From Actinomycetota bacterium (GTDB lineage Bacteria; Actinomycetota; Thermoleophilia; Gaiellales; Gaiellaceae): DNA of 64,000 nt. Below the pieces are notes generated by a model that was not told the origin of the DNA, made no database searches, and saw only the letters and a program-made list of their open reading frames with translations. Positions 26,055 through 42,387 of the stretch are shown one piece after another. The stretch covers positions 157,276 to 221,275 of the forward strand of contig PLBK01000021.1 in the NCBI GenBank assembly GCA_003134505.1. The letters run 5' to 3'. Each line of letters opens with the position of its first letter. Positions within the stretch are counted from its first letter, which is position 1. A program made the translations under genes and the position numbers.

Positions 26055-26417
26055 ATGTCGGCCGGACGTGATAGGTGGAAGCGAGCCAATTTCGCTCGCG
26101 TGCTGTTCCTCGTAGGGCTCTGCCTCGCGATTGCGTCGACCGCCGCAGCGAGCAGCCGTCGGGCCCAGGGGGTCCCTTCCTGGGGCGATCCGGGCGGCTG
26201 CTACTACGGAGCGAAGTCGAAGTGCTGGGTCTACTCGCACCCGGCGGACCAGGGCCAGACGACTTGCCAGGCCGTGGACGAGTACTACGACCCGGGGCAC
26301 GTCGACCCGTTCGGCTATACGCGTGCGGCCGCGACTGAGATCGCGAACATCGCGGTGGGAGAGGGATATCAGTGGGCTGGCGGGGGCTTGACGAACTCCC
26401 CTTCTTGCCGAAGATGA
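26055..26417 (+). pseudogene. 5' fragment of a secreted NlpC/P60-family hydrolase gene, truncated by insertion of the serine-recombinase element
   Basis: Signal peptide plus ..EIANIAVGEGYQWAGGGL, then 8 element-derived codons and stop; matching 3' fragment at 42367..42825. Confidence 0.6.
26379..26406 (+). other. attL (inferred): ggcgggggcttg-AC-gaactccccttctt
   Basis: Left arm mirrors right arm of attR; right arm mirrors left arm of attR (13/14). Confidence 0.6.
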
Positions 26418-26467
26418 GACGTAGAGCCGCCCGTGGGTGCGCCACGGGCGGGAGACGGAGGATAGAC

Positions 26468-27910
26468 ATGAAGTTGCTCGGCTACGTCAGACGCTCGCAG
26501 GACTCGGGAACGGGAGTCTCCGAGGAGATCCAGCGCGAGAAGATCAAGCAGTGGGCGGCGCTCTACGACCACGAGGTCAAGTTCTTGAAGCCCGATCTGG
26601 ACGAATCGTCGTGGACGCTCGACCGGCCGGGGATGCAAGCGGCGCTGAAGCTGCTGGCCGAGGGCAAGGCGCAGGGGATCGTCGCCGCGACCCAGGACAG
26701 GCTGACCCGTCGAACCCGGGACTTCTGCAACCTGCTGGAGCTGGCGGAGGAGCAGGGCTGGCACGTGTTCGCGGTCGATACCGGCCTCGACACGACGAAG
26801 GACTCGACGATGCACAAGATCATGGCCGTCTTCGCCGAGCACGAGTATCGCGACAAGAAGGAACGCGGCGACGAAGCCCGCCGGAACGCGGTCCTAAACC
26901 ACGGCGTCCACGGCGGAACGAATCCGCCCCACGGCTACGAGTGGACCCAGCGCCTTGACCCGGAGACCGGAGCGCCGAAGTTCGACCGCGAGGGCCGACC
27001 GATGCGCGGGCCGCTGCAGCCCACCGCCGACGCTCCGCGCGTGAAGGCGGCGTTCGAGGCCTTCGCCGAGGGCGCGTCATGGACGGAGGTCACGGAGATC
27101 GCGGGGATGAAGTCGCACGGCGCGACGGCCGCGATGCTGTCGAACCGGGTCTACACCGGCGAAGCACGGTCGGGCACTTTCCTGAAGGAAGGCGCGCATC
27201 CGGCGATCGTGGACAGGGTGCTGTTTAACCGGGTGCATCGGAAGCTGACGGTCCGGCGCCGCGACTACTCGTATCGGATCGACGGGCAGAAGCGGGTCGG
27301 CGCCCTCCTCGGCGGCGGGGTCATGCGCTGCGGCCACTGCGGGTACGGCCTGGTCAAGGACGGGCACCGCTACAAGTGCGTGAAGCACGGCTGCAAGAAG
27401 ATCTCCATCGGCGCCGAAGCTGCCGAGTCGTATCTGCTCCTGCACGCGCTGGGCTGGCACGTGGCGTTGAATCCGATGCACATTGCGGACATGGACGCAG
27501 CGGCGCTGCCGGTGTTCGAGGAAGCGGTCGAGGCAGCGCAGGCGGAGCTGGCGGAGGTTGAGCGGATGCATGAGGCCGGTGAGCTGACGCCTTCGGCCTA
27601 CGGGAAGGCGCTCACCGTCGCGCAGCACGCGCTGGCGGCGGCGGAGACCGCCCTGGCAGAGGCGGAGGCATCGCGCGGGTGGCTGGGGCTGGACACGAAC
27701 GCTGTCCAGCGGAAGCTGGTCGGCGAGGGCAACGACGTGCGCGACATCGCGGCCGGACGCGACTTCGTCAAGCAGATGTTGCGTGCGACGGTGAAGCCGG
27801 TCGGCAAGGGCACGCACTTGCCGGTCGCTGAGCGGATGGAGATCGAGTTCCTGACCCCGCGCCCGGCGGTGGTGCAGGACATGCTCGATGAAGGGCTGGT
27901 GGCGGCATGA
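26468..27910 (+). CDS. large serine recombinase (integrase)
   Basis: MKLLGYVRRSQDSG catalytic-Ser N-terminus, resolvase domain (IVAATQDRLTRR), recombinase domain, Cys cluster CGHCGYGL..YKCVKHGC zinc ribbon, coiled-coil C-terminus. Confidence 0.9.
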   Translation: MKLLGYVRRSQDSGTGVSEEIQREKIKQWAALYDHEVKFLKPDLDESSWTLDRPGMQAALKLLAEGKAQGIVAATQDRLTRRTRDFCNLLELAEEQGWHVFAVDTGLDTTKDSTMHKIMAVFAEHEYRDKKERGDEARRNAVLNHGVHGGTNPPHGYEWTQRLDPETGAPKFDREGRPMRGPLQPTADAPRVKAAFEAFAEGASWTEVTEIAGMKSHGATAAMLSNRVYTGEARSGTFLKEGAHPAIVDRVLFNRVHRKLTVRRRDYSYRIDGQKRVGALLGGGVMRCGHCGYGLVKDGHRYKCVKHGCKKISIGAEAAESYLLLHALGWHVALNPMHIADMDAAALPVFEEAVEAAQAELAEVERMHEAGELTPSAYGKALTVAQHALAAAETALAEAEASRGWLGLDTNAVQRKLVGEGNDVRDIAAGRDFVKQMLRATVKPVGKGTHLPVAERMEIEFLTPRPAVVQDMLDEGLVAA

Positions 27911-28107
27911 GCGCCGGGAGTCTGACGGCGACCCAGCGCGCCTACAACGTCCTGCGCGAGGAGATAGAGACGATCGACGCGCCGGAGATCGACACGCCGG
28001 AGGCTAGTCCCGAGTATCGCGCGGGCCTGGCGCGGGCAATGGCGCTCCTGCTGGAGATGGACGAGGACGCTGATCCTGGACCGTCGATCCCCGGCCGCGT
28101 CTATTGA
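27907..28107 (+). CDS. small acidic hypothetical protein (possible recombination directionality factor; speculative)
   Basis: ATGA overlap with integrase stop suggests coupling; no family recognised. Confidence 0.45.
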   Translation: MSAGSLTATQRAYNVLREEIETIDAPEIDTPEASPEYRAGLARAMALLLEMDEDADPGPSIPGRVY

Positions 28108-28214
28108 ATGGGGTTGCACTCCCTGCGGCGAAGAGTACTCTGCGATCAGGGACGCGAAACGGCAGCGTGACGGATACGCGAGTACTCGGCTAAACGTCAC
28201 GCGCCCTGCGACCG

Positions 28215-28616
28215 ATGATCCGGGGCATGAAGCCGGAGTCGCTCTTCGAGTGGGCAGTTCGCGAGTTCCTGCAGAACCCGCGCCGCCACCCGCATCCCCA
28301 GCGCCCGGCGACTCCTCCTCCCGATCCACCTCCGAAGCCTGCGTTGCCCGTGCCGTACGTGTCCCGGCGGGGGGTGCTGCCCTACGGGTGCGCGCGTTGC
28401 CCTGACGGAACGGCCACCCGCATGATCGACCACGGCTCCTATTCCGAGGCCATCTGCGACGACTGCTTCGAGCGCGAGGGACCGACCCGGCCACCTCGCG
28501 CCTGCGCGTGCGGCTGCGGCGAATCGCTGGAGGGCAAGCGGCGAGGCGCGAAGTACCTGAACCACGCGCACCAGCAGCGCGGCCAGCGTGCTCGCGACCG
28601 GCTCAGGAAGTCGTAG
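28215..28616 (+). CDS. Cys-rich (zinc-ribbon-like) hypothetical protein
   Basis: CARCPDG..CDDCF..CACGCG cysteine pairs; basic C-terminus. Confidence 0.45.
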   Translation: MIRGMKPESLFEWAVREFLQNPRRHPHPQRPATPPPDPPPKPALPVPYVSRRGVLPYGCARCPDGTATRMIDHGSYSEAICDDCFEREGPTRPPRACACGCGESLEGKRRGAKYLNHAHQQRGQRARDRLRKS

Positions 28617-28878
28617 CGGCGCGCTCAAGGCGCTGGCGGGCTTCGCGGGCTGACTCGGCGTCGAAGTAGCAGACCAGCGCGGCGTACTGACCCGTCTTCC
28701 CGGTGACGACGCCTTCCCGCCCGAGCGTGACGGGCGGGTCGCCGTTCTCGGGGAAGTAGGTGTGGAGCAGAACGGCCTCCTGGGGCGGGCGCGTGTTCTC
28801 CTCCGGGACGAAGTGCCCGGTGATGGTCTTCTTCCGGCGGCGGAGCTGATGCGGGGAACGGCCCTCAGGGTGCGGCAT
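28603..28878 (-). CDS. hypothetical protein
   Basis: ATG directly follows stop of upstream gene (28879); last gene of a minus-strand operon. Confidence 0.45.
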   Translation of the reverse strand: MPHPEGRSPHQLRRRKKTITGHFVPEENTRPPQEAVLLHTYFPENGDPPVTLGREGVVTGKTGQYAALVCYFDAESAREARQRLERAATTS

Positions 28879-29073
28879 CTAGTCCGCCCAGTCGTCGGGG
28901 AGGTCAGGAAGATGGACGTGGGCGCTCTGGGCGCCGGGGACGTCCTGCGGCTCTTCGGCGCGTTCCCAGCGCAGCAGCTCCGAGGCGGCGCGGAGGCGGA
29001 CGTTCTCGTTCTTGGACTGGAGCAGCTCGCGCAAGACGCGGATTGCCTCCGGTTCGGTCGGCGTCGGGGTCAC
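28879..29073 (-). CDS. small hypothetical protein
   Basis: GTG start overlaps upstream stop (GTGA at 29070-29073); helical EAIRVLRELLQSKNENVRLRAASELL. Confidence 0.4.
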   Translation of the reverse strand: MTPTPTEPEAIRVLRELLQSKNENVRLRAASELLRWERAEEPQDVPGAQSAHVHLPDLPDDWAD

Positions 29074-29804
29074 AGCCTGATCACCCGGAGGCGGGCGCGG
29101 CCGTCCGTGGGCACCGGGAAGCCGGGCCACTCCGGGTAGCGCGCGTCGTAGATGAGACCCCGGAGCGTCCGCTTGAGCTGGAGCAGGTCTTCGTGACCCC
29201 TGATGGCGAACATCCTCCTCCTGCCCTGGTCGGGGCAACGGATCAGCCGGTCCGTGCGGAAGCCGTAGCGCTCGCGATCGTCGGGTTCGCCGGGAATCAG
29301 CCAGCCGGTGCGGAGCAGCTCGTGCTTGAACCACAGGGCGCGCTCGGAGGACCCGGCCACGGCCTCCAGCGCTTCACGATCGAGGCAGAGGTTGAAGTTG
29401 TGCGCCTTCGGCCAGCCGCGCAGCACGAAGACGTAGCCCTCGTCCGTGGCGCGCTCGATCTGGCCACGGCCCTCCACCTCGTTCGGCGCGGTCTCCGGTG
29501 GCAACGGGTCGGAGAGCGGGTACCGGGCTGCGAGTCGCCGGGATTCCTCGACGGAGTCGAGCGGGATCTCCGTCGTCTTCGGCATCCCCGCGCGGTTGGC
29601 GGCGGCGAGCCGCTTCCGCCGCACGGCCTTCGCCTTCTGCGCGGCGGCGGCGGATTCCCGCTCGACGGCGACGGCGCGGCGAATCCGGCGCCCGACGTTC
29701 GAGACCGCGATGCCGTGCACGACCGCGAGCTGGCGGTGGGTGGCTCCGGCGCGATGCTCTTCGAGCAGTACCTCGTCGGAGACCTTCAGCTTCGTCTCGG
29801 CCAT
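29070..29804 (-). CDS. HTH-domain protein with unknown C-terminal domain (candidate element regulator)
   Basis: N-terminal LLEEHRAGATHRQLAVVHGIAVSNVGRRIRR helix-turn-helix; ATG 29804 chosen within ORF 29070..29936. Confidence 0.55.
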   Translation of the reverse strand: MAETKLKVSDEVLLEEHRAGATHRQLAVVHGIAVSNVGRRIRRAVAVERESAAAAQKAKAVRRKRLAAANRAGMPKTTEIPLDSVEESRRLAARYPLSDPLPPETAPNEVEGRGQIERATDEGYVFVLRGWPKAHNFNLCLDREALEAVAGSSERALWFKHELLRTGWLIPGEPDDRERYGFRTDRLIRCPDQGRRRMFAIRGHEDLLQLKRTLRGLIYDARYPEWPGFPVPTDGRARLRVIRL

Positions 29805-30488
29805 ATGGTCACTACACCGCCGTTGAGCACGCCGGGCCAAGCGCGAGCGCATCCCGAGCAAGCCGCCAAGCCGCCACGTTGCCCACGTCGCCGCGTGTCC
29901 GCCGCTCTCCGGGCCTCCGGCGCCCGAGCCGGGCAACCGGGCGGTCCGGCGCGAGCAACCGGGGCCGATCGGGGCCGCGTAGATGGGGTGGTTGCGCGGA
30001 ATATGGCCGTTTGCGGGGCGTTCGCGACGGCCGAACGGCCGCAGAGACCCTACCCCTTCAGGATCGCCGGGTCATGCGCGGCCCGGCGGCAAGCTGCGCG
30101 GGTGCGGCATCGTCGGGGCCGCAGGCATGGCTGAGGGCGGCGTGAAGCCAACTACCCAGTCGTCCGTCCGCTTGCGGTAGCGCTTCCAGAACGGAGGCTT
30201 TAGGTTTTTTGGTTCGTCCTTCACGGTGTCCACTCCTGACGGGCCGGTGGTCGATCCTTCTGTCTCAGGGTACAGATGAGTTCGAGACTTGGGAATCACT
30301 CGTTCGGGTATCGCGACGTGCCCCGGCCCCGGCAACGAATCCGAGGTCGAGAACTTCCCGCTAGTACCGAGCAAATGGAGAACTTACGTGCCCGCTAAAA
30401 CGCATGAATCCTGGAGATAAAAATAGGATCGTATTTCCGGGCACGATCCCATTGACGATTCGAGTACCGAGGGCGCTATCCTGGGGTT

Positions 30489-30956
30489 ATGACTGAGAAG
30501 GCCAAGCAGGTGTTCTCCAGCGGCTTCCAGCGGCTCAAGGCCCGGCACGATGCACTCCTGGCGCAGCACGCGGCCCTGACCTCCGAGCTTGCCAAGGCGC
30601 AGGCTCGCGGCGAGTCTGACGAGGCCCTACGCAAGGCCATCGTCGCGGCGGTGCCGCAGGCGAAGCTCGTGGAAATCCTCAAGGCCGCGAACATCGGCCC
30701 GATCACATCCGAGTCCAGTGTCGAGGCCGACATGCTCCGCAGTCCGGCGGTGGCAGACGCCATCGAGGACGCGACGGCACGCCGAGGTCGGCAGAACGGA
30801 CTCGGCACTTGGGCACCCGTTGTGGACTCCGCCGCAGTGAAGGCCCTGGGCGAGAAGCCGCACGTCGCGGCTGCCGCGCGGCGCAACAAGGCCGAGCACG
30901 AGCGCCAGGTCGCGGCCCTCGATCAGGCTCGCGCGAACAGGGATCGGAGGGACTGA
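30489..30956 (+). CDS. hypothetical coiled-coil protein
   Basis: First gene of plus-strand operon after AT-richer divergent region. Confidence 0.5.
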   Translation: MTEKAKQVFSSGFQRLKARHDALLAQHAALTSELAKAQARGESDEALRKAIVAAVPQAKLVEILKAANIGPITSESSVEADMLRSPAVADAIEDATARRGRQNGLGTWAPVVDSAAVKALGEKPHVAAAARRNKAEHERQVAALDQARANRDRRD

Positions 30957-31171
30957 TGGCCCGCACTGAAATCTCCGGCAACGTCGTCACCCCTGATCCG
31001 ACGGACGCCTTCCAGACGGACGTGCTCCGAAACATCGAGGCGGGCGCGACGGACAACGGCGACGGCACCTGGACGCTGACCGATCCGGCGATGGTCACGT
31101 TCCTGGCAGTCGTCAATCGCTACGGAAACTCCTTCGGCGGGCTGCCGAGCACGCCGGGACGGGGGTGTTAG
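30956..31171 (+). CDS. small hypothetical protein
   Basis: ATG overlaps previous stop (TGATG). Confidence 0.45.
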   Translation: MARTEISGNVVTPDPTDAFQTDVLRNIEAGATDNGDGTWTLTDPAMVTFLAVVNRYGNSFGGLPSTPGRGC

Positions 31172-31173
31172 AC

Positions 31174-31338
31174 GTGGCGCACAACAAGTTCCTGGACGGC
31201 GCAGGCCCGGCGACCCAAGCGCAGAAGGACGCCTGGAACGAAGGACGCAAGACCGCCTACGACGCACTCGGCAACAAGACCAGTCCACAGTTCGGCTCCG
31301 CCGAGCACGAGGTAGCGGTCAAAGAGGGCAAGGTCTAG
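31174..31338 (+). CDS. small hypothetical protein (54 aa, below ORF-track cutoff)
   Basis: GTG 2 nt after previous stop; its stop overlaps next GTG start (TAGTG); fills the operon without gaps. Confidence 0.35.
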   Translation: MAHNKFLDGAGPATQAQKDAWNEGRKTAYDALGNKTSPQFGSAEHEVAVKEGKV

Positions 31339-31763
31339 TGACCGCCGTCTCGCACGCTGACCGCCTTACGTCCCGTGCACGCCGGGCGCAGGAGTGGGGC
31401 ACGCCCGATCCGACCGCCGGAGCACGAGCACGGCAGGCGCAGCGTGAAGAGGATGACCGCATCCTCGCGCTTGCCGCAGAGGAGGCCGACCTGGCTGAGG
31501 CCAAGCTCGCTGAGAAGGTGGCGTACGTCACCGAGCACTTGCCGCCCGCTATCGAAGAATACGAGCGTGCCCGCGAGGTCTACACCGAGGCCATCGAGGC
31601 GGCGGCTCGCGCGACGATGGCGTGCAACGCGGCCCGCGTGACCTACACAGATTTGTGGTCGAAGACTTTGGCGGTGGGCCAGCCGGTTCCCGTCAGACTT
31701 GCCCCGGTCGCACTCGGGGACGCCATTCGGACTATCAATGCCTACGGGCCAGGAGCCTGTTGA
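31338..31763 (+). CDS. hypothetical protein
   Basis: 141-aa ORF tightly coupled to the upstream small ORFs. Confidence 0.5.
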   Translation: MTAVSHADRLTSRARRAQEWGTPDPTAGARARQAQREEDDRILALAAEEADLAEAKLAEKVAYVTEHLPPAIEEYERAREVYTEAIEAAARATMACNAARVTYTDLWSKTLAVGQPVPVRLAPVALGDAIRTINAYGPGAC

Positions 31764-31771
31764 AAGGATGA

Positions 31772-31954
31772 TGCGATTTAGTTGAGGGCTTGTTGAAGCC
31801 GTGCGGATTCCACAACACCGAAACAACCGACCGCCCTGACGAGTTCAAGCGTGTACGGGAGTTAGAAAGGTCAAGCGTTATTTCGTACGGGTAAGCAGTG
31901 AGTGCACCTGCGAAGCCCCCGCCGGTGGTGTCGCAAACCCTCAACTAAATCGCA
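31772..31954. repeat. 183-bp element bounded by 17-bp perfect inverted repeats (tgcgatttagttgaggg / ccctcaactaaatcgca)
   Basis: IRs extend to 20/21; interior visibly AT-richer than flanks; lies between two same-strand ORFs. Confidence 0.8.
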
Positions 31955-31961
31955 CCGTCCG

Positions 31962-32564
31962 ATGTCCGGCAATCTGACGAGCTTCAACGTTCACCGATTC
32001 GTCGGCTTCGTGGCGTCGGCCCGGAGCGGCAAGCTGGAAGCGTTCGGCGTCGAACCGGGCACGCCGGTCGAGCAAACGCTGGAGGCCATGTCCGTGTTGG
32101 GAATCGACGCCGACACGATGACGAGCCTCTCGGCGGTCACCGCACCGATGGCGAAGGCCGTGGGCACGCCGGTCGGCTGGACGGGATCGGACGGCCTGGG
32201 CGATGCACTCAAGGCCGTCCAGCAAGCTCTGCCGGACGCCTACGACGTGAAAGACCTGGCCCTGGACTTGTCGGCCTGCCTCGTGCAGTCCGACCTTGGC
32301 AGCTACTTCCGCGTGCCGCTCGCGGCGGGCCTCAAGCCCGCTGACCGCTCCGCCTGGGTCGAGGTCGAGGAGTCCACGAGCTACACCGCGAAGGCATGGA
32401 CTCGTGACCCTGCCGGGCGCTTCGCCTCGGGCGGTGGCGGTGGCGGTGCTCGGCCTCGGTCGAAGAAGCCGAAGCAGGCGCTGCCCCCCTTCCCGGCGGA
32501 CGCCACTCCGAGGATGCACGAGACGGGCAAGGGCGCGGGCACCTGGAACCCGGCAGGCACCTGA
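31962..32564 (+). CDS. hypothetical protein with Gly/Lys-rich C-terminus
   Basis: ATG 31962 immediately after the IR element; no family recognised. Confidence 0.5.
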   Translation: MSGNLTSFNVHRFVGFVASARSGKLEAFGVEPGTPVEQTLEAMSVLGIDADTMTSLSAVTAPMAKAVGTPVGWTGSDGLGDALKAVQQALPDAYDVKDLALDLSACLVQSDLGSYFRVPLAAGLKPADRSAWVEVEESTSYTAKAWTRDPAGRFASGGGGGGARPRSKKPKQALPPFPADATPRMHETGKGAGTWNPAGT

Positions 32565-32611
32565 CAGCCGACGCTGCCGACGATCCTGGCAAGTGCCCGA
32601 GGGTCTAGCAG

Positions 32612-32647
32612 GCTTGCCCGCCTCAGTCAGGCGCTCGCCCGAGCGCG
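32612..32647 (-). repeat. family-A repeat core, copy 1
   Basis: Reverse complement matches CGCGCTCGGGCGAGYGCCTGACTGAGSCGGGCGAGC (one change: ..GGGCAAGC). Confidence 0.8.
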
Positions 32648-32671
32648 AACCGCCTCGCCGCTAGAAGGTCG

Positions 32672-33304
32672 TCACTTCCACCTGATGGCTTTGAAAACGA
32701 TGATGGTGCTGAACTTCGTTCCGTCGATCTGCCAGGCATAGCAGCCGAGGGAGCGGAGCCAGGTTCCGCCCAGCCACTCGCGCCAGCCGCCTGTGCCGTT
32801 GGCGGTCGGCACCGGCGGAAGCTGCGGATCGAACAGTTCCGGCGCGCCGTCCGGTGTCTCGCCGCCGAAGGCGACCTTCCCCGCTCCATCAAGGCGGCGG
32901 CCTCGGATGAAGACCGGCCCTTGGTAGCGCGGGTAAGCGAACCAGTCGATCTTCACTACCCACCAGCCATTCTTCTCGCGGGAGAACGGGATGATGCCGT
33001 GCTTGATGTCGCCCGCTCGGTCGATCAACGGCCTGACCGAGCCGTGACCGAGCGCGACGCCACCGAACTGGTTGTTGTCAATCTCGGAGCCGGTGCTCGT
33101 CGGACACGCCCCGCCGGGGCCGAGCTTGGGCAGGTGCAGCGGGCGTCGCAGCGCGCGTGGGACGTGCCCTGGCACCGCCTGACACCCGCCGTAGAGCGTG
33201 CACGTCTGCGCGTAACTCGTCGGCGTCGGTAGCGGCGCACCAGCAGACGGGCTACCGATGGCGGTGAGTCCGAGAGCGGCAAGGAACAAAGCAAGAAGCC
33301 TCAT
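32672..33304 (-). CDS. secreted hypothetical protein
   Basis: Signal peptide MRLLALFLAALGLTAIGSPSAGA; followed 3' by repeat copy 1. Confidence 0.6.
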   Translation of the reverse strand: MRLLALFLAALGLTAIGSPSAGAPLPTPTSYAQTCTLYGGCQAVPGHVPRALRRPLHLPKLGPGGACPTSTGSEIDNNQFGGVALGHGSVRPLIDRAGDIKHGIIPFSREKNGWWVVKIDWFAYPRYQGPVFIRGRRLDGAGKVAFGGETPDGAPELFDPQLPPVPTANGTGGWREWLGGTWLRSLGCYAWQIDGTKFSTIIVFKAIRWK

Positions 33305-33346
33305 CCAAACCTCCCGACAATGATAGGTCTACCCGGCGCTACGTCC

Positions 33347-33370
33347 GTCGCCTTCCCCGCAAAAGGCGAC
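33347..33370. repeat. family-B hairpin, copy g (gtcgcc-ttccccgcaaaa-ggcgac)
   Basis: GTCGC/GCGAC stem; reverse complement gtcgccttttgcggggaaggcgac resembles other copies. Confidence 0.6.
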
Positions 33371-33447
33371 AAGGGGGACACCTCTACTCCTCACTAGGTC
33401 ACCCTTTCGGGGTTGCTCCGGCGACAAGTTCCACCGATGACTTCGGT

Positions 33448-34116: not shown

Positions 34117-34240
34117 ACCGCGAGCAGACGCGGCTGGCAAACGGCTATCTCCGCAAGCGCCTCCGCACCCACACGACTACCACTCCGCCGCCGCTTCGCC
34201 AAAACGGTTCGCCAAGCCCTCCTCGTAGTCTGTTACCGCT

Positions 34241-34276: not shown

Positions 34277-34294
34277 GGTCGTGGCGCTCGCGGC

Positions 34295-34495
34295 TTAGTT
34301 CGCTTGGGCGCTCGTGAGCACTTCGCGGGCAGTCGCCAAATCAGACTCTTCGACCAGAATCTCCCGCCAGGTCTGGACGGTTCCAACCGGGTCAGCCTCC
34401 CGGTCGAAGCACTCGATTCCAGCCGTGCGAAGAAAAGAGCGAATCACGTCGGCCTCACCCTGGCTCCCTGCGACCGTGAGACGCACAAGACTCAT
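34295..34495 (-). CDS. small DUF2007-like (putative signal-transducing) protein; tentative
   Basis: 66 aa; LTVAGSQGEADVIRSFLRTAGIEC resembles DUF2007 pattern; flanked on both sides by family-A repeats. Confidence 0.5.
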   Translation of the reverse strand: MSLVRLTVAGSQGEADVIRSFLRTAGIECFDREADPVGTVQTWREILVEESDLATAREVLTSAQAN

Positions 34496-34547
34496 CCCGT
34501 ACGAGTTTCGCCAAGCGTTTCGCCAATCCCTCCTCGTAGTCCGACCT

Positions 34548-34583
34548 GCTCGCCCGGATCAGTCAGGCACTCGCCCGAGCGCG
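34548..34583 (-). repeat. family-A repeat core, copy 3 (extended unit about 34503..34600)
   Basis: gctcgcccggatcagtcaggcactcgcccgagcgcg plus shared flanks ..cctcctcgtagtc.. and ..gggtcgtggcgctcgcggc. Confidence 0.85.
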
Positions 34584-34611
34584 GGTCGTGGCGCTCGCGG
34601 CGAAGTTGTCG

Positions 34612-35079
34612 TTAGTGGGCGGCTACGCGGATGTAGAAGTCGTACGTCCGCGTCTGTGCTCCATGGATCAAGTGCGCCACAACCTTCCAGCAGCCGGGCG
34701 ACGAGAACGTGAGTGCTGAAACCTGGAAGCCGATGGTTCCGTAGCCGTACGTGATTTCGGCTTTCAGTGGTGGGGCTTTGGCGTCCAACCGTGATCCGGA
34801 GACGCGCAGCCGACCCGGCGTCTCCCGATACCACGCGATCTTCATACCTCTCGGATCGGCCACGAAGTTGTGATCGCCCCGGCTATAGGCCATCCAGAGG
34901 TTGCCCTGCCGGAGCCAATGGATCGAGAGGCCACCCATGTACGCGCTCGGCGGTCTGGGCGAGACAGGTGTGAGGCGACAAGCGTTCGTCGAGCGCGACG
35001 TGCTGTCGGTCGCGTCCGCGACTGCAACACCCGTGATCGCAAGCACGATCATCGACGTTATGACCATGCGAAGACCCAC
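34612..35079 (-). CDS. secreted hypothetical protein
   Basis: N-terminal hydrophobic signal (MVITSMIVLAITGVAVA); flanked by repeat copies 3 and 4. Confidence 0.55.
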   Translation of the reverse strand: MGLRMVITSMIVLAITGVAVADATDSTSRSTNACRLTPVSPRPPSAYMGGLSIHWLRQGNLWMAYSRGDHNFVADPRGMKIAWYRETPGRLRVSGSRLDAKAPPLKAEITYGYGTIGFQVSALTFSSPGCWKVVAHLIHGAQTRTYDFYIRVAAH

Positions 35080-35120
35080 GTAAGAATCGTATCAAGGCGT
35101 TTCGCCAGCGCCACCACGAA

Positions 35121-35156
35121 GCTCGCCCGGCTCAGTCAGGCGCTCACCTGAGCGTG
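35121..35156 (-). repeat. family-A repeat core, copy 4 (diverged)
   Basis: gctcgcccggctcagtcaggcgctcacctgagcgtg. Confidence 0.75.
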
Positions 35157-35158
35157 AC

Positions 35159-35184
35159 TGTCGTGGTTCCAGCAGAAGACGACA
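35159..35184. repeat. family-B hairpin, copy f
   Basis: Reverse complement tgtcgtcttctgctggaaccacgaca; first 16 nt identical to copy c at 60715. Confidence 0.75.
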
Positions 35185-35282
35185 CGCCCGAGCTAAGACG
35201 AAGTGCAGGGATGTGCCCGCGACAGCCTGTAGACGATCCTCCCGGTGAGCTTGTTTGCTGACGTTCAACCGGCGAGGAGCGC

Positions 35283-35849
35283 CTAATCCACGAACTTCTG
35301 CGCGAAGTAGAACTCGCTCACCCGGCCACGGCGGATGTAGATGAAGAACCACGGCTTGAGGAAGTTCGCCACCCCCGCGTGAAGCGACTGCGCTGCGAGG
35401 CCGACCTTGACCCAGCACTGGCACGGTTTCTCTTTCCTCCATGCGTTCCAGATGAAGCCGTGCCAGCGGTGCTCGCACCGACTCGTTGCTGTTCGATGAC
35501 ACGGCCCGAACGGGATGATGCTTCCAACTCCGAATCCGCTCTTCGTCCGGTAGTAGCGAGTCGTGAAGTCGAGTTCGTTGACGCGGCCATCCTCGAACGT
35601 CACATACACCCGGCTTCCGTGGAGCCGGTAGTAGCCCTGGATGATGCCGCTGACCCGATCAAGCACGTGGTAGCCATGCCCTTCTGACCCATACTCCCGT
35701 TCCACATGCGCCTTCGACTCGCCCAGCGCGATATCGCCAATCTTGTGCCACGGAACGAGAACCGGCGGGTCGCTCCTGCCGGGACTGCTTGAGGCGATCC
35801 CCGTGACGGCGAACGAGGCGAGCAGTGCGAGAACGAGAGTCCTCCGCAT
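35283..35849 (-). CDS. secreted hypothetical protein
   Basis: Signal peptide MRRTLVLALLASFAVTGIASS; Cys-containing mature part. Confidence 0.6.
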   Translation of the reverse strand: MRRTLVLALLASFAVTGIASSSPGRSDPPVLVPWHKIGDIALGESKAHVEREYGSEGHGYHVLDRVSGIIQGYYRLHGSRVYVTFEDGRVNELDFTTRYYRTKSGFGVGSIIPFGPCHRTATSRCEHRWHGFIWNAWRKEKPCQCWVKVGLAAQSLHAGVANFLKPWFFIYIRRGRVSEFYFAQKFVD

Positions 35850-36039
35850 CAGAACTCAGTATCGGTGCATCAGCACGTGACGCGTAGCCCTCTTTGTAGG
35901 GCTGTCGCGCTTCCACCAGTCTGCGTCATCCGCGCCACGACCTAGCGCCCGCTAATCGGGCACCAAGCTCTGCATGACCACGGGCAACGCCGCAGTCGCG
36001 AACGACCCGAGGTTGCTCTTGTCGCTTTCTATTCAACCG

Positions 36040-36090
36040 CCAGGGTGAGGTGCGGAGGGAAGCCGTGGACGGGGACTCCCTCCGCCCTGG
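36040..36090. other. strong extended hairpin (9-bp core stem gcggaggga/tccctccgc, outer ccagg/cctgg)
   Basis: Read directly; lies in the 340-bp gap between oppositely oriented gene blocks. Confidence 0.7.
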
Positions 36091-36188
36091 GTGCCGACAT
36101 GACGCGGCGGTGAACCTAGTCCCACACTACCCAGTCCCACCTCCGGGCCTTAAGGCGGGACGACGCCACTCGGTAGAACAACAGATAG

Positions 36189-36653
36189 ATGCCCAGCATG
36201 GACTCCTACCGCCGGATTAGCCGCGAAGCAGAGCTGCTCGCAGGCGTCATCATCAAGCGGCTCAGGCACGAAGGCTGCACCGACGAGGAGATCGTTCAGT
36301 ATCTGAAGGCGATCGTCTCCCCGGCGGCGCCGACAAGCTCCGCCGTCTCCAGCGCGATCGGCAAGGCGCTGCGGAACCCCGGCTTCGCCGTCCGCATCAG
36401 CGACGAGGGCACCAGGGTCACCGACCACCGGCCCTTCGCGCTGATTCACCATCCCAGCGTCGAGGTGCCGACCGGCGATCCCCGCAACGACCTGGCGAAG
36501 TCGCTCTTCGACCCGAAGCGCATGGAGAAGGACACCCTCGCCGACATGGAGAAGCACCAGCTCCACAAGGCCCGCGCCAACCAGCTCGACGCCGCAGACC
36601 AGCACGATTTGACCGCGCGCATCCGCAAGCGGCGCGCGAAGGAACAGGGCTAA
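36189..36653 (+). CDS. hypothetical protein
   Basis: 154-aa ORF, first of a coupled plus-strand block. Confidence 0.5.
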   Translation: MPSMDSYRRISREAELLAGVIIKRLRHEGCTDEEIVQYLKAIVSPAAPTSSAVSSAIGKALRNPGFAVRISDEGTRVTDHRPFALIHHPSVEVPTGDPRNDLAKSLFDPKRMEKDTLADMEKHQLHKARANQLDAADQHDLTARIRKRRAKEQG

Positions 36654-36916
36654 TGGCCATCACCGCGATCAAGCGCGACCGCTCGAACGGCACCTGGCTG
36701 GTGGCCGGTCTCGTCTCAGACTTCGCGGGCTACCCGCACTCCAGCGATGCCCACGGAGGCATCAAGGCGCAGACGTCATGGGCCGATCAGGTCGATGGCG
36801 CACAGGCCGTGCTCGACGTTGACGGCGGCATCCTGCCGCCCAGCGCAACGCCGACCTGGATCATCCCCGACTGCCTGGCTCAGGATCTGGGCCTGATCGC
36901 GGAGGACTCCCCGTGA
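36653..36916 (+). CDS. hypothetical protein
   Basis: ATG overlaps previous stop (TAATG). Confidence 0.5.
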   Translation: MAITAIKRDRSNGTWLVAGLVSDFAGYPHSSDAHGGIKAQTSWADQVDGAQAVLDVDGGILPPSATPTWIIPDCLAQDLGLIAEDSP

Positions 36917-37557
36917 GCGTCTCCGCCGAGATCTTCGCCGAGGGCCTGATCAGGGTCGATGGGCGCTGGGTCGAAGACCCCGCGTTCGACCCGCACCGGA
37001 TCATCCGTCCCGAGGACGAGGAGCAGGAGAGCGAAGCAGCCGCACGCGCACGCGCTGTGGCGGCAGAGGACGCTGACCACGAGACGCGCGAACGGGCCGA
37101 GCTGACCGCTGGCGATCTTGTCCGCGTCGTGGACGAGAAGGGAGCGCGCTGGGTGGAACCTGGCCGCGCACCTGGCTCGATGTCCGGCGCGATGGAGGCG
37201 CTACACGCCGAGATGAAGGAGCTGGACGAGCTGTCCCAGCGCGTCATCCTGGCGCCCAAGGCGAAGAAGCGCCTGGCCGAACTGCCGGGCCTGATCGCCG
37301 CCATCCACCGGCGCGAGGAAGAGGCGGCGCAGGCGAAGGAATCTGACGATGCCGAGTTCCGGGAGCACTACGAGGGGGCGGTGCAGGAGTACCTCACCGC
37401 GCTGCGGGCATTCGTGGACGCGAAGGACGACGTGGATCGCATCCGCCTGGACGCGATGGCGCGCGGCATCTACCTGGAGAAGATCGAAGTTCGGGCCAGC
37501 CAGGACAGGACCCTCTACAAGCTTCTCGAACGTGCTCGCGCGACGGCGCTGGCCTAG
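36913..37557 (+). CDS. hypothetical coiled-coil, acidic protein
   Basis: GTGA overlap with previous gene. Confidence 0.5.
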   Translation: MSVSAEIFAEGLIRVDGRWVEDPAFDPHRIIRPEDEEQESEAAARARAVAAEDADHETRERAELTAGDLVRVVDEKGARWVEPGRAPGSMSGAMEALHAEMKELDELSQRVILAPKAKKRLAELPGLIAAIHRREEEAAQAKESDDAEFREHYEGAVQEYLTALRAFVDAKDDVDRIRLDAMARGIYLEKIEVRASQDRTLYKLLERARATALA

Positions 37558-37564
37558 AGCGCTG

Positions 37565-37903
37565 ATGCCGACCAGTCCGTTCTCGAAAGCCGTGCTCCAG
37601 AAGCTGGAGCAGATGCGGATGGACGAGGTCTCCGGCGTGGATGCCGGGGCCAACCTGATCGACGGCTGGATGGTCATGAAGAACCGGCAGCGCGTCGAAA
37701 AGGCGCTGACGGACCTGATCGACAAGACCGACGTCCGGGCCGACCGTCACGCAGTCCGGCACCCGAGCACCGGCCGCTACGTCCCGAAGCCGAAGCCGGA
37801 GGACGAGATCGACGGCGCAGCGGCGGCATCCGCCAACGGCGCCATGAAGACGGTCCTGCCGTGGCGGCACGGCGGGCTTCCGCTTCTCTGCTTCCGCCGC
37901 TGA
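37565..37903 (+). CDS. hypothetical protein; N-terminal EVSGVDAGAN motif faintly reminiscent of phage head-maturation/scaffold proteins
   Basis: ATG 37565 inside ORF 37349..37903; motif similarity is weak and from memory. Confidence 0.35.
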   Translation: MPTSPFSKAVLQKLEQMRMDEVSGVDAGANLIDGWMVMKNRQRVEKALTDLIDKTDVRADRHAVRHPSTGRYVPKPKPEDEIDGAAAASANGAMKTVLPWRHGGLPLLCFRR

Positions 37904-38062
37904 TCAGGCGGCTGCCGCTGCACGCTGTCAGCTCCCGCGCGGCAGTACCAGCCACGAAGGCGCTCATTCAATGGCCAGAGCTTGGTTCGCTCGGCGAACG
38001 CGCGTACCTGGCCGAGGATCCCTGGCGATCTCCGGCCCGCTTCGCCACGTCCAAAAAGAGGA

Positions 38063-38854
38063 CTAGAGAAGCTGCTTCGCGCGAGACTGGAACAACCCAA
38101 TCTCGTAGCCGACGTCGTATTCGAGCTGCGCGACGGTATAGGGCTTGCCCTTGGGGCCGAAGACTGCGCAGGTGTCAATGACGACGAGCACCTCAGTGCG
38201 CTGCGAGGCGGCGAGCAGGCAGTGTCCCACAGGAACCCGCCGTACGCGAAACCGAATAGCCATGCCAAGCGGAGGTGTCGCGGTCGGCTTCAAGCACGAC
38301 GTTGGTGGGCAGCTCTTCGCGAAGACGCTCACCGCATTAGCAGCGGAGTTGAAGAGGTAGACGGAGATGATCGCCTCTGGTCTGTTCAGTCCCCGATCCC
38401 GATACGTCGCTCTCGCGCCGCCGACGAATCCGGCCCATAACGATCCGATTCTGTTGACGGACGATCGTGTGTCGTACTCCGCCTTGCTCGCCGTGGGAAA
38501 AATGGCGATTGCCGTGGCGGCGGTTATCCGTTTGGTCCCCGACGGTGCCGTGTAGTAGGTGAGATGTCCGCTCGGCGGGCAGTCGAACCCATACTTGTGG
38601 TACTCGGGATTACCGACCTTGCAGAACTCGCCCGCATGGAGGCACTTCTCACCCCAGCTCAACTGCGCGTCAACGAAGCCGGGTGGGCATGTCTTGAGCG
38701 TGTGGGCGGGATGGTCTGCGCGGAACTGGTGCGCCGAGCCTGCGAGGGCTGTCCCACTTGCGAAAGCCGTCCCGGTCGCAAGAGCCACGGTCGCGATGAG
38801 TGCGCCGATCCGAGATCGAGTGGAGATCTTCGTCGTCAGGGTCTTGTACGTCAC
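38063..38854 (-). CDS. secreted Cys-rich hypothetical protein
   Basis: GTG 38854 overlaps upstream stop (GTGA); signal peptide IGALIATVALATGTAFASGTALA. Confidence 0.5.
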   Translation of the reverse strand: MTYKTLTTKISTRSRIGALIATVALATGTAFASGTALAGSAHQFRADHPAHTLKTCPPGFVDAQLSWGEKCLHAGEFCKVGNPEYHKYGFDCPPSGHLTYYTAPSGTKRITAATAIAIFPTASKAEYDTRSSVNRIGSLWAGFVGGARATYRDRGLNRPEAIISVYLFNSAANAVSVFAKSCPPTSCLKPTATPPLGMAIRFRVRRVPVGHCLLAASQRTEVLVVIDTCAVFGPKGKPYTVAQLEYDVGYEIGLFQSRAKQLL

Positions 38855-39504
38855 GAAGCCGACAGCGCAGGAGGCGATGGCTTGACCGAATCCAGTGCTG
38901 CGAGGTCTTGTTGTAGTTGGGCGATGAGAGCTGGTACCTCGCCTCGGTAGTGGGCTAGAGCGAGGTCTAGCCGGAAGTCGAACCAGCCCGAGACTTGGGG
39001 GCCATAGTGGACGGTCGTCGGTTTCTGCCGATTTGAGACCGAAAAAATCGTTGAGCCGTCCGCGGTGTGCTGGAAGCCGACCATCTTGTCGAAGCGGCAT
39101 TCCCTTGTCTGCTTAGCCCCCTGGAAAACCACGCGCTGATTGGTGACGTAGACGGTCCCCAAATCAATCGCTGTCGGAACCGGCGCGCCCTGAACGAAGT
39201 GGCCTCTTGACGAACCAACGCGGTAGCGGATCGAGCGTCCGCCGATGCTGCCGATGGGGAACGACACACCGCTGGAGCGGCCCTGCCACTGACCCGCGCC
39301 CCGTCGGTCCTCGATGAGACCCGCACCGGTGATAAGCGCGAAGACCGCCTCGCCACGCTTCAGCATGATGCCGTTGGATGCCTCGCCGGAGTAGGTCTGT
39401 GCAAGCGCCAGAAGAGCGGCAGAGGCATCGCGCTGTTCCTTCCAGTGCGCCAACTGCGCGTTGTACTGCTTTGCAGCCCTCTTTGCTCGATACTTTTCAA
39501 ACAT
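38851..39504 (-). CDS. hypothetical protein with bacterial PH-like (YokE/GRAM-like) C-terminal domain; tentative
   Basis: GTVYVTNQRVVFQGAKQTRECRFDKMVGF pattern typical of bacterial PH-like domains. Confidence 0.5.
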   Translation of the reverse strand: MFEKYRAKRAAKQYNAQLAHWKEQRDASAALLALAQTYSGEASNGIMLKRGEAVFALITGAGLIEDRRGAGQWQGRSSGVSFPIGSIGGRSIRYRVGSSRGHFVQGAPVPTAIDLGTVYVTNQRVVFQGAKQTRECRFDKMVGFQHTADGSTIFSVSNRQKPTTVHYGPQVSGWFDFRLDLALAHYRGEVPALIAQLQQDLAALDSVKPSPPALSAS

Positions 39505-39657
39505 CTCCGCTTCGACCCTGTTCGGAGCCTAGTCGGCTCGACGGTAGTCCGAACCGCCCAGGTAGCACTCGGCGTGAAACATCGAGCCAAACCCTACAAG
39601 GCTTGTCGTCGCCCTGTGTTGACGCCGCCCAGCCCGTCGTGGAAGAGTCTCGCTGGC

Positions 39658-40170
39658 ATGGGCCGGAGAATCGCCCACGTCGCACTCCTTCTCGCAGTCG
39701 TCGCCGCCATCGCTGCGACCGCCTCGGCTGCTCGCAGGCCCATCCTGACCGAGTTCGGGGCTACGCGGAAGGTTTGGTTCGCTCACCACGTTCTCGACGC
39801 AAACCCGAAGCTCGAGCGCGGGTGCTGCTTCCTACCGCGGCAGCGCGACGGAACCGATCAGTACATCACGGTCCAATACGGGGCGGGCACTCACGTCGAC
39901 ATGTTCGAGATGGACTTCGCGCCTACCATCTCGATCGCATATGCGCGACAAGTCGTGCTTCGTGAAGCCGGGCCTGGGGCGAAGCTCGTTTACGACTTGA
40001 AACCGGCAGGTTGCGAGCAGATCGAATACCGCAGCTCGCTGCTCAGTCGAGCAGTCGGCGGCGCCATGTTCGCCGAACTCTCACGGAACGGTAGCGGCGG
40101 CGCGCCGAAAGGCCATGTCGGCGACGTTCTCTTCATCGCGCTTTCCGTAGGCGCCCATCCCGGCTGTTAG
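39658..40170 (+). CDS. secreted hypothetical protein
   Basis: Signal peptide MGRRIAHVALLLAVVAAIAATASA. Confidence 0.55.
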   Translation: MGRRIAHVALLLAVVAAIAATASAARRPILTEFGATRKVWFAHHVLDANPKLERGCCFLPRQRDGTDQYITVQYGAGTHVDMFEMDFAPTISIAYARQVVLREAGPGAKLVYDLKPAGCEQIEYRSSLLSRAVGGAMFAELSRNGSGGAPKGHVGDVLFIALSVGAHPGC

Positions 40171-40180
40171 AGGTGTGAAA

Positions 40181-40693
40181 ATGAACGGAGAGCCGACGCC
40201 AAAGCAGGCAGTGAGGGACCGGAAGACCGGCGATCTGCTCTACAAGGGATACAACGGAAACCTCGTCCTGACCGATCGCGGCGTGGTCGTCCAGCGTGGC
40301 GCGAAGGGACTCCTGCTGCAGCAGTCACTCCGAGGCGAGAAAGAGATTCCCTACGACTCGATCGTTGCCGTCCAGTTCAAGAAGGGCGGCATGATGGCGG
40401 GTTATATCCAGCTCTCTCTTCGTGGAGGCAGTGAGGCGAAGCGAGGGATCAACGAAGCACTGAAGGACGAGAACACCGTCTCCTTCCAGTTCACGAGCAA
40501 CGGCCGCTTCCAGGAGGCGAGGGAGATCATCAACTACCGAGTTGAGCGCACGAAGAATCAGGAGCAGAGCGGCAGCCCCCGCGATGCTGATCCGGTGGCC
40601 AGGCTCCGTGAGCTTGCGGAGCTGCGCGACCAGGGAGTACTCAACGAGGAGGAGTTCCTGGCGGCCAAGAAGCGATTACTGGGTCAGCTCTAG
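40181..40693 (+). CDS. PH-like (DUF4429-type) domain protein with C-terminal SHOCT domain
   Basis: LVLTDRGVVVQRG..IPYDSIVAVQFKKGGMMAGYIQLSL plus C-terminal LRELAELRDQGVLNEEEFLAAKKRLL (SHOCT). Confidence 0.65.
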   Translation: MNGEPTPKQAVRDRKTGDLLYKGYNGNLVLTDRGVVVQRGAKGLLLQQSLRGEKEIPYDSIVAVQFKKGGMMAGYIQLSLRGGSEAKRGINEALKDENTVSFQFTSNGRFQEAREIINYRVERTKNQEQSGSPRDADPVARLRELAELRDQGVLNEEEFLAAKKRLLGQL

Positions 40694-40819
40694 CCACCGG
40701 GTCGGTACGAAGTCGTGGCGGTTCCTCGAATGTCCGAAGGGGCCATTCCCTTCTTGCCGTACCAGAGCTAGTCGTACGCGGGACGGCCTCCGCCGGAGGC
40801 CACGGACAAGGAGGGCGAG

Positions 40820-41083
40820 ATGCCCGCAACGAAGATCTCCGGCCGCCAGGCGATCCAGCAGGTGTTGGCGGACGGCAAGCCGCGCAAGGCCAAGGCCATC
40901 GTCACGGCAGCCGCCGAGATCGCCACCGGCCTCAAAGGCAAGACGCCGGAGGCCACGCTCAGCGCGATGCTCTACGTGGAGGCCAAGAAGCCGGTCGGGA
41001 TCGTCGTCCGCACCCAGAACAAGGGCGAGTTCAAGCTGCGCCCGCAGCGCCAGGCCCGCGTGAAGAGGCCGCCCGCCGCGTAG
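40820..41083 (+). CDS. small winged-helix (HARE-HTH-like) protein; tentative
   Basis: 87 aa; ISGRQAIQQVLADGKPRKAKAIV..TPEATLSAMLY..GEFKL pattern. Confidence 0.4.
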   Translation: MPATKISGRQAIQQVLADGKPRKAKAIVTAAAEIATGLKGKTPEATLSAMLYVEAKKPVGIVVRTQNKGEFKLRPQRQARVKRPPAA

Positions 41084-41226
41084 GCCCGCAGCGCCAACCT
41101 GTCGAAGAAGGGGCCGCGAGGCCTCTTCCTCGTCGCCGGGCCACAGCGCGACGGTCCAAACCCGTCATGCGGCTGGGCTCCCCTTCGAGGCGATGATTCG
41201 GAGCGCCTGGAGCTTGCTCAACCAGG

Positions 41227-41553
41227 GTGCCTACGCCTATTCGCTGGCGACGTTTTACCTTCTTCGTCCTCGGCATCTGGTGGCTGGCTGAGCGCTCCGT
41301 GGAGTGCATGAAGTGGCTGATGGGGTGGCGGCGGGCATCCACGGCCGTCGCGCCGCTCCCGATGTTCGGCGAGGGAGTCGTCGGGGAGATGCCGATGCCG
41401 GGCCGGTCGCGGCACCAGCGCAGGACCTACGGCACGCTGATGCCGCCTCGTCGGCCCGGCTTGAGGCTCGGCGGCTCGGCCGCGTCCTCGGTCATCGCGT
41501 ATAGCTCGCCTGTCGGCGGGATCATGCTCGGCGGTTCTGGCTTCGGCGGCTGA
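41227..41553 (+). CDS. possible membrane-anchored Gly-rich protein
   Basis: Third-codon positions mostly G/C when read by hand in this frame; one hydrophobic segment FTFFVLGIWWLA; competing antisense ORFs overlap real genes. Confidence 0.3.
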   Translation: MPTPIRWRRFTFFVLGIWWLAERSVECMKWLMGWRRASTAVAPLPMFGEGVVGEMPMPGRSRHQRRTYGTLMPPRRPGLRLGGSAASSVIAYSSPVGGIMLGGSGFGG

Positions 41554-41643
41554 GCGCCCAGCCCTTCTCCAAGCCGCAGGGTCGGCACGCGGTCCCGGGG
41601 TGCAGAGGCGCCCGCAACCCCTGCGAGCGCCACTGCCTGTGCT

Positions 41644-42096
41644 CTACGCCGCCTGCTGCAGCGGCTGGGTCGGGAGGACGCTGAACGGCAGCGACCAGCC
41701 CTCGTCGTTGTGGCCGTCGATGAACGGCCGCCACTCGTAGATCTTCCCCGGCTCAAGGGGAAGCCCCGGCGGAACGTTCACCGCGAAGGCCCAGCCGAGC
41801 GACATGCCCGGCTTGACATGCGGTGCGATGTTCGGCCGGTACGGAGGCGAGTCGATGGCGAGCGGCTTCGGCTCCTCGTCCGGCTGCTGCTGGACGCAGA
41901 ACGGCTCGCCGTCGGCGTCGATCAGCTCCAGGCGGAACGTGTGCCACGAGGTGGCTTCGCTCCACGGGATGTCGATGATCCCGGCGACCGCGAACGGCCC
42001 GCCGGGGATGATGAAGGACCAGCCTCCACCGAGGACGCTGAGCTTGCCGTCGTAGCACTGGGCCGAGTCGGCAAGCATGAGGTTGACCTTGTACAA
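41644..42096 (-). CDS. hypothetical protein (last gene before attR)
   Basis: TTG 42096 six nt after GGAAGGAGA RBS (alternative ATG 42078); no family recognised. Confidence 0.5.
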   Translation of the reverse strand: MYKVNLMLADSAQCYDGKLSVLGGGWSFIIPGGPFAVAGIIDIPWSEATSWHTFRLELIDADGEPFCVQQQPDEEPKPLAIDSPPYRPNIAPHVKPGMSLGWAFAVNVPPGLPLEPGKIYEWRPFIDGHNDEGWSLPFSVLPTQPLQQAA

Positions 42097-42358
42097 CGGA
42101 AGTCTCCTTCCATCCGCAGTTTCCGACCCCCGGCGAACCGGGTGGGGTTGTCGGGCTGGCCCTGCGGCCAACAGGAGGGATAGTGACGGCGGGGTCGGAT
42201 GGTGCGCCGAGTTCCGGCCGTGCTAGCGTCCGACTCGCACCATCCGCACATGCCCCTCCGCCACACCGAGGAGGCTTCGGTCAGGGGTTGCAGGGGTGCA
42301 GCCCCTGACCATTTCTGCACCTAATCCCGGTCGGCACGCGGTCGGCGGCTCCTAGAAG

Positions 42359-42387
42359 AAGAAGGGGTGTTCTCGAATCCCCCGGGC
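42359..42387 (+). other. attR (inferred): aagaaggggtgttc-TC-gaatcccccgggc
   Basis: See attL; half-site swap regenerates two dyad-symmetric sites. Confidence 0.6.

Follow-up and report, generated by a model that had tools for sequence, protein, structure and literature searches.

Large serine recombinase (LSR) systems carry the integrase gene beside attP, an imperfect inverted repeat of about 50 bp, and use a short, less symmetric attB in the host; excision requires a recombination directionality factor (RDF) (PMC12286644, PMC1470463, PMC3836970), and RDFs are not recognisable from sequence (PMC12286644). Insertions of serine-integrase elements in coding sequence have been described, namely SPbeta in spsM, skin in sigK and gin in gerE (PMC4191935, PMC5499854, PMC5595907). 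Here we analysed a window of 64,000 nucleotides (the whole stretch of DNA, positions 157,276 to 221,275 of contig PLBK01000021.1, assembly GCA_003134505.1; all positions below are in window numbering) from an Actinomycetota bacterium of the family Gaiellaceae, in which a 16,006-bp element with an LSR gene interrupts a gene for a secreted protein. Taken as a whole, the locus is very probably the result of serine-integrase integration at a GGCGG core: recombination between attP and attB would have placed the element in the EGYQW-A-GG-C block, the best-conserved coding stretch of a gene for a secreted CHAP/NlpC-P60-like protein, and excision of the element, given a directionality factor, would restore the 254-aa gene exactly.

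A first-pass annotation of this DNA had proposed that two open reading frames (ORFs), 26055..26417 and 42367..42825, belong to one interrupted gene. They are indeed its halves, as uninterrupted colinear orthologues and empty sites demonstrate. When the two parts were joined as proposed there (26392|42375), the resulting 262-aa protein matched about 45 full-length single proteins (248-254 aa, up to 84% identity) from Gaiellaceae-type metagenomes and metagenome-assembled genomes (MAGs). However, every aligned homologue (about 120) reads EGYQWA-GGC[YF]D, whereas this join reads EGYQWA-GGGLTNPP-GGCFD, and the extra GGGLTNPP (8 residues, 24 bases) falls exactly at the join. The locus of the closest orthologue (L001) is empty and syntenic, the target having the same six neighbours there, in the order Lactamase_B gene, opposite-strand Collagen/LTD (lamin-tail domain) gene, 472-aa gene, target, 231-aa gene, VTT-domain gene and 377-aa gene, and it reads CAGTGGGCCGGCGGTTGCTTCGAC uninterrupted across the site. 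In the window, the left junction reads CAGTGGGCTGGCGG|GGGCTTGACG and the right junction AATCCCCCGGGCGG|CTGCTTCGAC. Joining them at the shared GGCGG (26383|42390) gives a gene of 765 nt and 254 aa, which equals the orthologue P0001 in length and shares 87% identity with it, and about 70 further Gaiellales/Thermoleophilia species-representative genomes read GAGGGnTAYCAGTGGGnnGGnGGnTGY without interruption. The true breakpoints are within the 5-bp core common to both junctions, GGCGG, at 26379-26383 and 42385-42389. Since the homologues and empty sites lack the eight residues and the GGCGG join restores 254 aa, the element is 16,006 bp long, not 15,982 bp as first given; removing it restores the frame, as had been claimed, though through GGCGG and not through the earlier join, which leaves eight residues too many. 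The third-position GC phase shifts by one between the two gene fragments, in keeping with an insertion length of 1 modulo 3, and the GC content is about 70% in the flanks versus 62-65% inside the element. The insertion of the element into a conserved secreted-protein gene is thus real. An assembly chimera was also considered, and is unlikely given that both junctions are at the same codon of one gene and that the inverted repeat of 26 bp is reciprocal.

The repeat finder returned an inverted repeat (I13) between 26381-26406 and 42359-42384, 26 nt long and 81% complementary, that abuts both breakpoints. Elsewhere in the window the arm motif is absent, 0 occurrences being expected by chance, and exactly two bases separate the arms when the ends are joined through the core. 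On the forward strand, attL then spans 26353..26406 (B half site 26353-26378, central GG 26379-26380, P' arm 26381-26406) and attR spans 42359..42412 (P arm 42359-42384, central GG 42385-42386, B' half site 42387-42412). The reconstructed attP, 54 bp with GG at its exact centre, is AAGAAGGGGTGTTCTCGAATCCCCCG-GG-CGGGGGCTTGACGAACTCCCCTTCTT, and the reconstructed attB is ...GGGATATCAGTGGGCT-GG-CGGCTGCTTCGACAACGAC...; the predicted junction strings are GGGATATCAGTGGGCTGGCGGCTGCTTCGACAACGAC for attB and GTGTTCTCGAATCCCCCGGGCGGGGGCTTGACGAACTCC for attP. We scored every possible 2-bp crossover in and around the core for P:P' symmetry: 21 of 26 positions matched solely with GG at 26379-80 / 42385-86, all other registers giving 5-10 of 26, and with this GG as the centre P and B' agree at 9 of their 12 innermost bases. 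The half-site alignment logic behind this choice is that used for other LSRs (PMC12286644). As in a serine-integrase attP, the two 26-bp arms flank a GG that is present in both attL and attR, and this GG is non-palindromic. An identical, non-palindromic central dinucleotide is required by the serine-integrase mechanism. Judged by this symmetry, the crossover is most probably at the first GG of the core (26379-80 / 42385-86).

The first-pass annotation had placed the crossover at 26391-92 / 42373-74, with a mutated centre, AC versus TC, that could lock the element in place. The junction strings that it quoted were accurate, ggcgggggcttg-AC-gaactccccttctt being found at 26379-26406 and aagaaggggtgttc-TC-gaatcccccgggc at 42359-42387, and the two sites rebuilt from them, attB ggcgggggcttg-NN-gaatcccccgggc and attP aagaaggggtgttc-NN-gaactccccttctt, both look dyad-symmetric, while the corresponding join is in frame. 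That model would, however, need the string QWAGGGLTNPPGGCF in the uninterrupted native gene, and the GGGLTNPP peptide at its join is missing from the 120 aligned homologues and the roughly 70 genomic empty sites. Moreover, GGGGG[CG]TTG, taken there for an attB half site, accompanies the recombinase when the flank is a different one. In L002, the nearest relative with a retrieved locus (P0061, recombinase 65% identical), GGGGGGTTGTGGAATTCCCCTTTT stands against GGGGGCTTGACGAACTCCCCTTCTT of the window at an equal distance upstream of the recombinase gene, and what adjoins it there is the 3' end of a transposase-like ORF instead of the hydrolase gene. Since L002 carries the arm motif beside this unrelated flank, the comparison assigns the G-run-TTG sequence to the element. 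What had been taken for attB half sites (gggggcttg / gaatccccc) are the inner 9-12 bases of P' and P, and what had been taken for attP is made up of the outer 14 bases of the same arms; both sites looked dyad-symmetric because they are pieces of one palindrome, and cutting one 26-bp inverted repeat in two is enough to produce both symmetries. The AC/TC dinucleotide is one of five arm mismatches, 12 bp from the crossover, whereas the true centre is GG on both sides, inside a 5-bp core that attL and attR have in common, and nothing in the corrected sites points to a post-integration change that would lock the element in place. An extra mutation is also needed by that model and not by the corrected one, and we regard it as highly improbable. 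The wrong element size, attachment sites, junction peptide and lock all arose because the reconstruction was misregistered by 12 bp on each side, and the features that had seemed unusual (the junction peptide, the dyad-symmetric attB and the mismatched locked centre) are artefacts of this misregistration.

Inverted repeats at both ends, flanked by a 5-bp direct repeat, would also be left by a transposon moved by a transposase, its terminal inverted repeats then being of 26 bp and GGCGG a 5-bp duplication of the target site. However, no DDE, rve or other transposase family was found among the cargo ORFs, the sole recombinase is the LSR, whose gene abuts the element end, and the joined ends leave exactly 2 bp between the inverted repeats. 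Among serine integrases, attP and attB often share short identical cores of more than 2 bp, which likewise counts against a target-site duplication. Further evidence comes from ten more distant relatives of the recombinase (44-59% identity) in metagenomes; no relatives were found in IMG/VR. Using the AA[CGT]TCC arm motif as an anchor, we found the host/element boundary at a constant distance in all ten. In four distinct loci (L004, L005/L006, L010 and L012) the flank is an ABC-transporter ATPase starting abruptly at ...PNGAGK[ST]T, so that the elements there, whose recombinases are 47-50% identical to the one in the window, entered DrrA-like genes at their Walker A codons (GPNGAGKST). In relatives of 48-55% identity the arm motif stands at a fixed distance from a host boundary in such codons. 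These Walker A insertions are seen in at least three different sequence backgrounds. The Walker A codons are a recurrent, highly conserved attB, and the recombinase clade thus targets short, highly conserved coding motifs repeatedly. The far junction (attR) was captured in none of the related loci, their contigs being too short, and the cargo ORFs share nothing with these loci. That different ABC-ATPase genes were all entered at one point of their shared conserved motif indicates site-specific integration and makes movement by a transposase very unlikely.

Serine-integrase integration also fits the recombinase gene itself, which, as the first-pass annotation had noted, lies just inside the left junction (26468..27910, forward strand, 480 aa). 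In Pfam the protein matches the Resolvase domain (PF00239, E=1.5e-21, residues 4-142) and the Recombinase domain (PF07508, 22.4 bits against a cut-off of 21.1, E=1.5e-4), and over residues 1-462 it matches PHROG 95 'integrase' (E=2.6e-47). The 12 relatives aligned all keep Ser10 (in YVRRSQDSG), Arg8 and the YxRRSQDSG motif around them, as well as C288, C291, C304 and C309 of a zinc-ribbon-type motif; PF13408 (zinc ribbon) was not reported for the protein at E<=0.01 and is precomputed for several homologues. A resolvase catalytic domain and a recombinase domain, with a putative Cys4 zinc-ribbon motif, are shared with phiC31, Bxb1, phiBT1 and SPbeta SprA, and the integrase gene beside attP and the entry into conserved coding sequence are shared with phage-type integrases generally. 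The protein differs from actinophage and other deposited phage integrases in sequence, however, being about 26% identical over at most about 71% of the query, and the element differs from phages in having no recognisable phage genes. A PDB sequence search matched no solved LSR structure, returning Tn3 resolvase alone (E=2.6e-4). Relative to its homologues the ORF is full-length with all invariant residues kept; it and both attachment sites look intact by sequence, and the system may still be active.

A small acidic ORF of 66 aa (27907..28107, forward strand) follows, its ATG overlapping the recombinase stop codon (ATGA). Overlapping small ORFs occupy the same position in relatives (64 aa in the contig of P0060, the closest relative with a 70%-identical integrase, and 65 aa in L005), and the ORF at this position in L002, which runs off the contig, shares an N-terminal motif with that of the window. 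From its position, the 66-aa ORF is a possible candidate for the directionality factor or a partner of the recombinase. On the other side of the recombinase gene, its leader contains a stem-loop, CCGCCCGTGG-GTGCG-CCACGGGCGG (26427..26451, forward strand), 16 nt upstream of the ATG and directly preceding a GGAGG ribosome-binding site. A stem-loop is kept with different sequences in L002, L003, L005, L008 and L009, with compensatory changes in 4 of 10 pairs among only six sequences. It may be an operator, or a transcriptional insulator that shields the integrase gene against read-through from the host gene.

The consequences for the host gene are direct. Its 5' part (26055..26380, forward strand) encodes the signal peptide and residues 1-108 plus the first two bases of the Gly109 codon, and the ORF continues past the breakpoint into the element to a stop at 26417, after 10 foreign residues. 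The 3' part (42385..42825, forward strand) encodes residues 109-254, including the invariant Cys138 (GPDCSG) and His207, and lacks its own signal peptide, start codon and ribosome-binding site; the ORF that contains it, 42367..42825, includes GAGPDCSGLVWRVW and SDSHIAL. Since the signal peptide and residues 1-108 are separated from the catalytic Cys/His part, the target gene is inactivated and neither fragment can be functional. The proposal that the insertion splits a three-gene exoprotein operon was borne out by the empty locus L001, where this arrangement is conserved. The first gene (24639..26054, forward strand, 471 aa) has a signal-peptide-like N-terminus and no Pfam family, is not part of the element, and has its 472-aa counterpart directly upstream of the intact target in L001. 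The third (42822..43508, forward strand, 228 aa), also with a signal-peptide-like N-terminus, starts within an ATGA overlap with the target stop codon, and this overlap is present in L001 as well, where the downstream gene is 231 aa long. Because the third gene is now 16 kb from the 5' end of the operon, and no promoter-like site was found in 41000-43000, near attR (in itself weak evidence), the insertion probably has a polar effect, the translationally coupled gene 42822..43508 being cut off from the operon promoter. A host gene on the reverse strand (23410-24591), with collagen triple-helix repeats and a lamin-tail domain, adjoins the operon and is conserved in L001.

The identity of the interrupted protein was less clear than its interruption. 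It had been called an NlpC/P60 hydrolase, and of this a remote CHAP/NlpC-P60-like resemblance stands, while Pfam membership does not: the corrected protein scores 12.6 bits against PF00877 (cut-off 23, E=0.14), with 2 of 21 family members matching, CHAP was seen in 3 of 21 members at E>=0.024, and the 262-aa join had no Pfam match at E<=0.01. A profile search returned 730 relatives, all 'hypothetical' and none with any Pfam domain, and a genome scan returned 241, the best 80 loci being almost all from Gaiellales, Thermoleophilia or unclassified Actinomycetota MAGs; the family is essentially confined to Gaiellales/Thermoleophilia. Three of the apparent homologues (P0046, P0054 and P0056, 227-314 aa) are frameshifted read-throughs into neighbouring genes, likely owing to assembly or gene-calling errors in metagenome contigs, and are not fusion proteins. 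Across 121 aligned sequences, C138 (G-P-DCSG), H207, the EGYQWxGGC block and several other positions are invariant. The best PDB sequence match is LytE, at the Cys motif (E about 0.1). A first AlphaFold2 model from a 21-sequence alignment was too poor (mean predicted local distance difference test score, pLDDT, of 54), and was redone with 121 sequences (pLDDT 70.8). With this second model, the top five Foldseek matches and those at ranks 7, 8, 10 and 12 are CHAP or NlpC/P60 hydrolases, the CHAP matches being LysK, LysGH15 and PlyPy, with E-values of 0.04-0.3 (none at E<=0.001), template modelling (TM) scores of 0.36-0.52 and probabilities mostly of 0.6-0.95 (lower for 3m1u). Like NlpC/P60 and CHAP hydrolases, the target has an invariant Cys in G-x-DCSG-[LF], a downstream His and a signal peptide; unlike them, it falls below the Pfam thresholds and has its own conserved EGYQWxGGC block. 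The link is therefore a resemblance and not family membership, and the protein is probably a secreted papain-like Cys/His hydrolase of a new family remotely related to CHAP/NlpC-P60, as sequence motifs and the predicted fold suggest.

The cargo of the element (28108..42358, both strands) consists of about 20 ORFs, chosen by third-position GC, nearly all of them without a family match. PADLOC and NCBIfam returned no family for any of them, and Pfam returned only a SHOCT/DUF4429 protein (40175-40693), a weak HARE-HTH (40820-41083) and a DUF6941 protein (41644-42171, reverse strand). No virion structural, packaging or lysis genes were found, PHROGs searched with 20 ORFs giving only the integrase and one weak match of unknown function; no cargo ORF has a Pfam or NCBIfam family of the FtsK/TraB-type translocase, type IV secretion, relaxase or Rep kinds, and megablast of the element DNA against deposited phages and plasmids gave no match. 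The genes that would place the element among prophages, or among integrative conjugative elements (ICEs) including actinomycete ICEs (AICEs), were accordingly not found, and the element may be a mobilisable island, a satellite or a decayed or defective prophage.

Two sets of repeats were noted within the cargo. A repeat of 33 nt, CTCGCCCGGCTCAGTCAGGCGCTCGCCCGAGCG, which includes a GCGCTCG-CCC-GAGCGC hairpin and belongs to a longer unit of about 95 nt, has four intergenic copies on the forward strand (32613-32645, 34242-34274, 34549-34581 and 35122-35154) and two copies outside the element on the reverse strand (55910-55942 and 59556-59588), with 0 expected by chance. It either links the element to the 49-64 kb region or is a genome-wide repeat resembling repetitive extragenic palindromes (REP-like). 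That region (about 49000-64000) is a second low-GC stretch (62-66% versus about 70%) with many ORFs without family matches; the matches obtained there are ANTAR, a weak LppP/LprE and FG-GAP only, with no mobility gene detected, and it may be another horizontally acquired island. A 27-nt inverted repeat (31766-31792 / 31934-31960, 89% complementary, arms 141 nt apart), relatively AT-rich (GGATGATGCGATTTAGTTGAGGGCTTG), starts in the intergenic region before ORF 31902..32564 and has its right arm a short way into that ORF; an operator or origin-like role is possible.

An integrated element that leaves an exactly restorable ORF invites comparison with gene-intervening elements. As with skin/SpoIVCA, SPbeta/SprA-SprB, gin/GirC-GirX and the fdxN element/XisF, a coding region is interrupted and excision would restore the ORF precisely; like gin, the element lacks phage-related genes (PMC5595907); and NCBIfam relates the recombinase weakly to XisF (E=2e-10, falling far short of the cut-off). 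It differs in its non-sporulating actinobacterial host, in its target, a secreted hydrolase-like gene, and in that neither regulated excision nor cross-strain conservation of the insertion is indicated here. A domesticated element or regulatory switch, whose conditional excision would reconstitute the hydrolase gene and operon, would agree with the intact recombinase and attachment sites, the exact ORF restoration and a cargo without phage or conjugation genes, and has the Firmicutes precedents skin, SPbeta and gin (PMC4191935, PMC5499854, PMC5595907). However, the insertion is seen in one genome only, the gene being intact in the other species representatives and metagenome homologues examined, so that there is no sign of vertical retention, and no excision product is on record. 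Moreover, Gaiellaceae are not known to have a developmental programme. We consider such a switch unlikely, and slightly more so its fuller form, in which a non-phage, non-conjugative island would reversibly switch a secreted cell-wall-hydrolase operon, the leader hairpin and the 66-aa ORF coupling recombinase and RDF expression to read-through of the host operon.

Some observations weigh against simple integration at the GGCGG core as well. The nearest empty site is just 87% identical at the protein level, and as far as the orthologues alone go the eight residues may be a lineage-specific ancestral insertion, against which the arm sequence of L002 argues. The crossover dinucleotide within GGCGG was placed by symmetry, not by measurement, and of the four half sites, B shows only weak similarity to the rest. 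Excised circles, free attP and same-population empty alleles were not found, all three recorded source contigs with the recombinase also hold the truncated N-terminal fragment (the integrated form), and the intact attP string is absent from IMG/VR. Finally, the cargo is uncharacterised, so that the element may be a satellite, a defective prophage or a mobilisable island. With these points taken into account, the locus is a standard serine-integrase integration into coding sequence, real but ordinary in kind.

The comparison carries a lesson for reading attachment sites from symmetry alone: inner and outer parts of one pair of attP arms can mimic a separate attB and attP and so misregister the sites, which the comparison with empty sites resolves at once. 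A distant LSR with both attachment sites defined to a few bases is also the information needed for testing it as a genome-engineering tool. For the biology of this uncultured host lineage, a soil actinobacterium of the Gaiellaceae, the analysis draws attention to some 730 secreted Cys/His proteins that form an unannotated family in Gaiellales/Thermoleophilia, and it shows that the LSR family in soil Actinomycetota targets highly conserved coding motifs, EGYQWxGGC here and the Walker A motif of ABC ATPases in its relatives.

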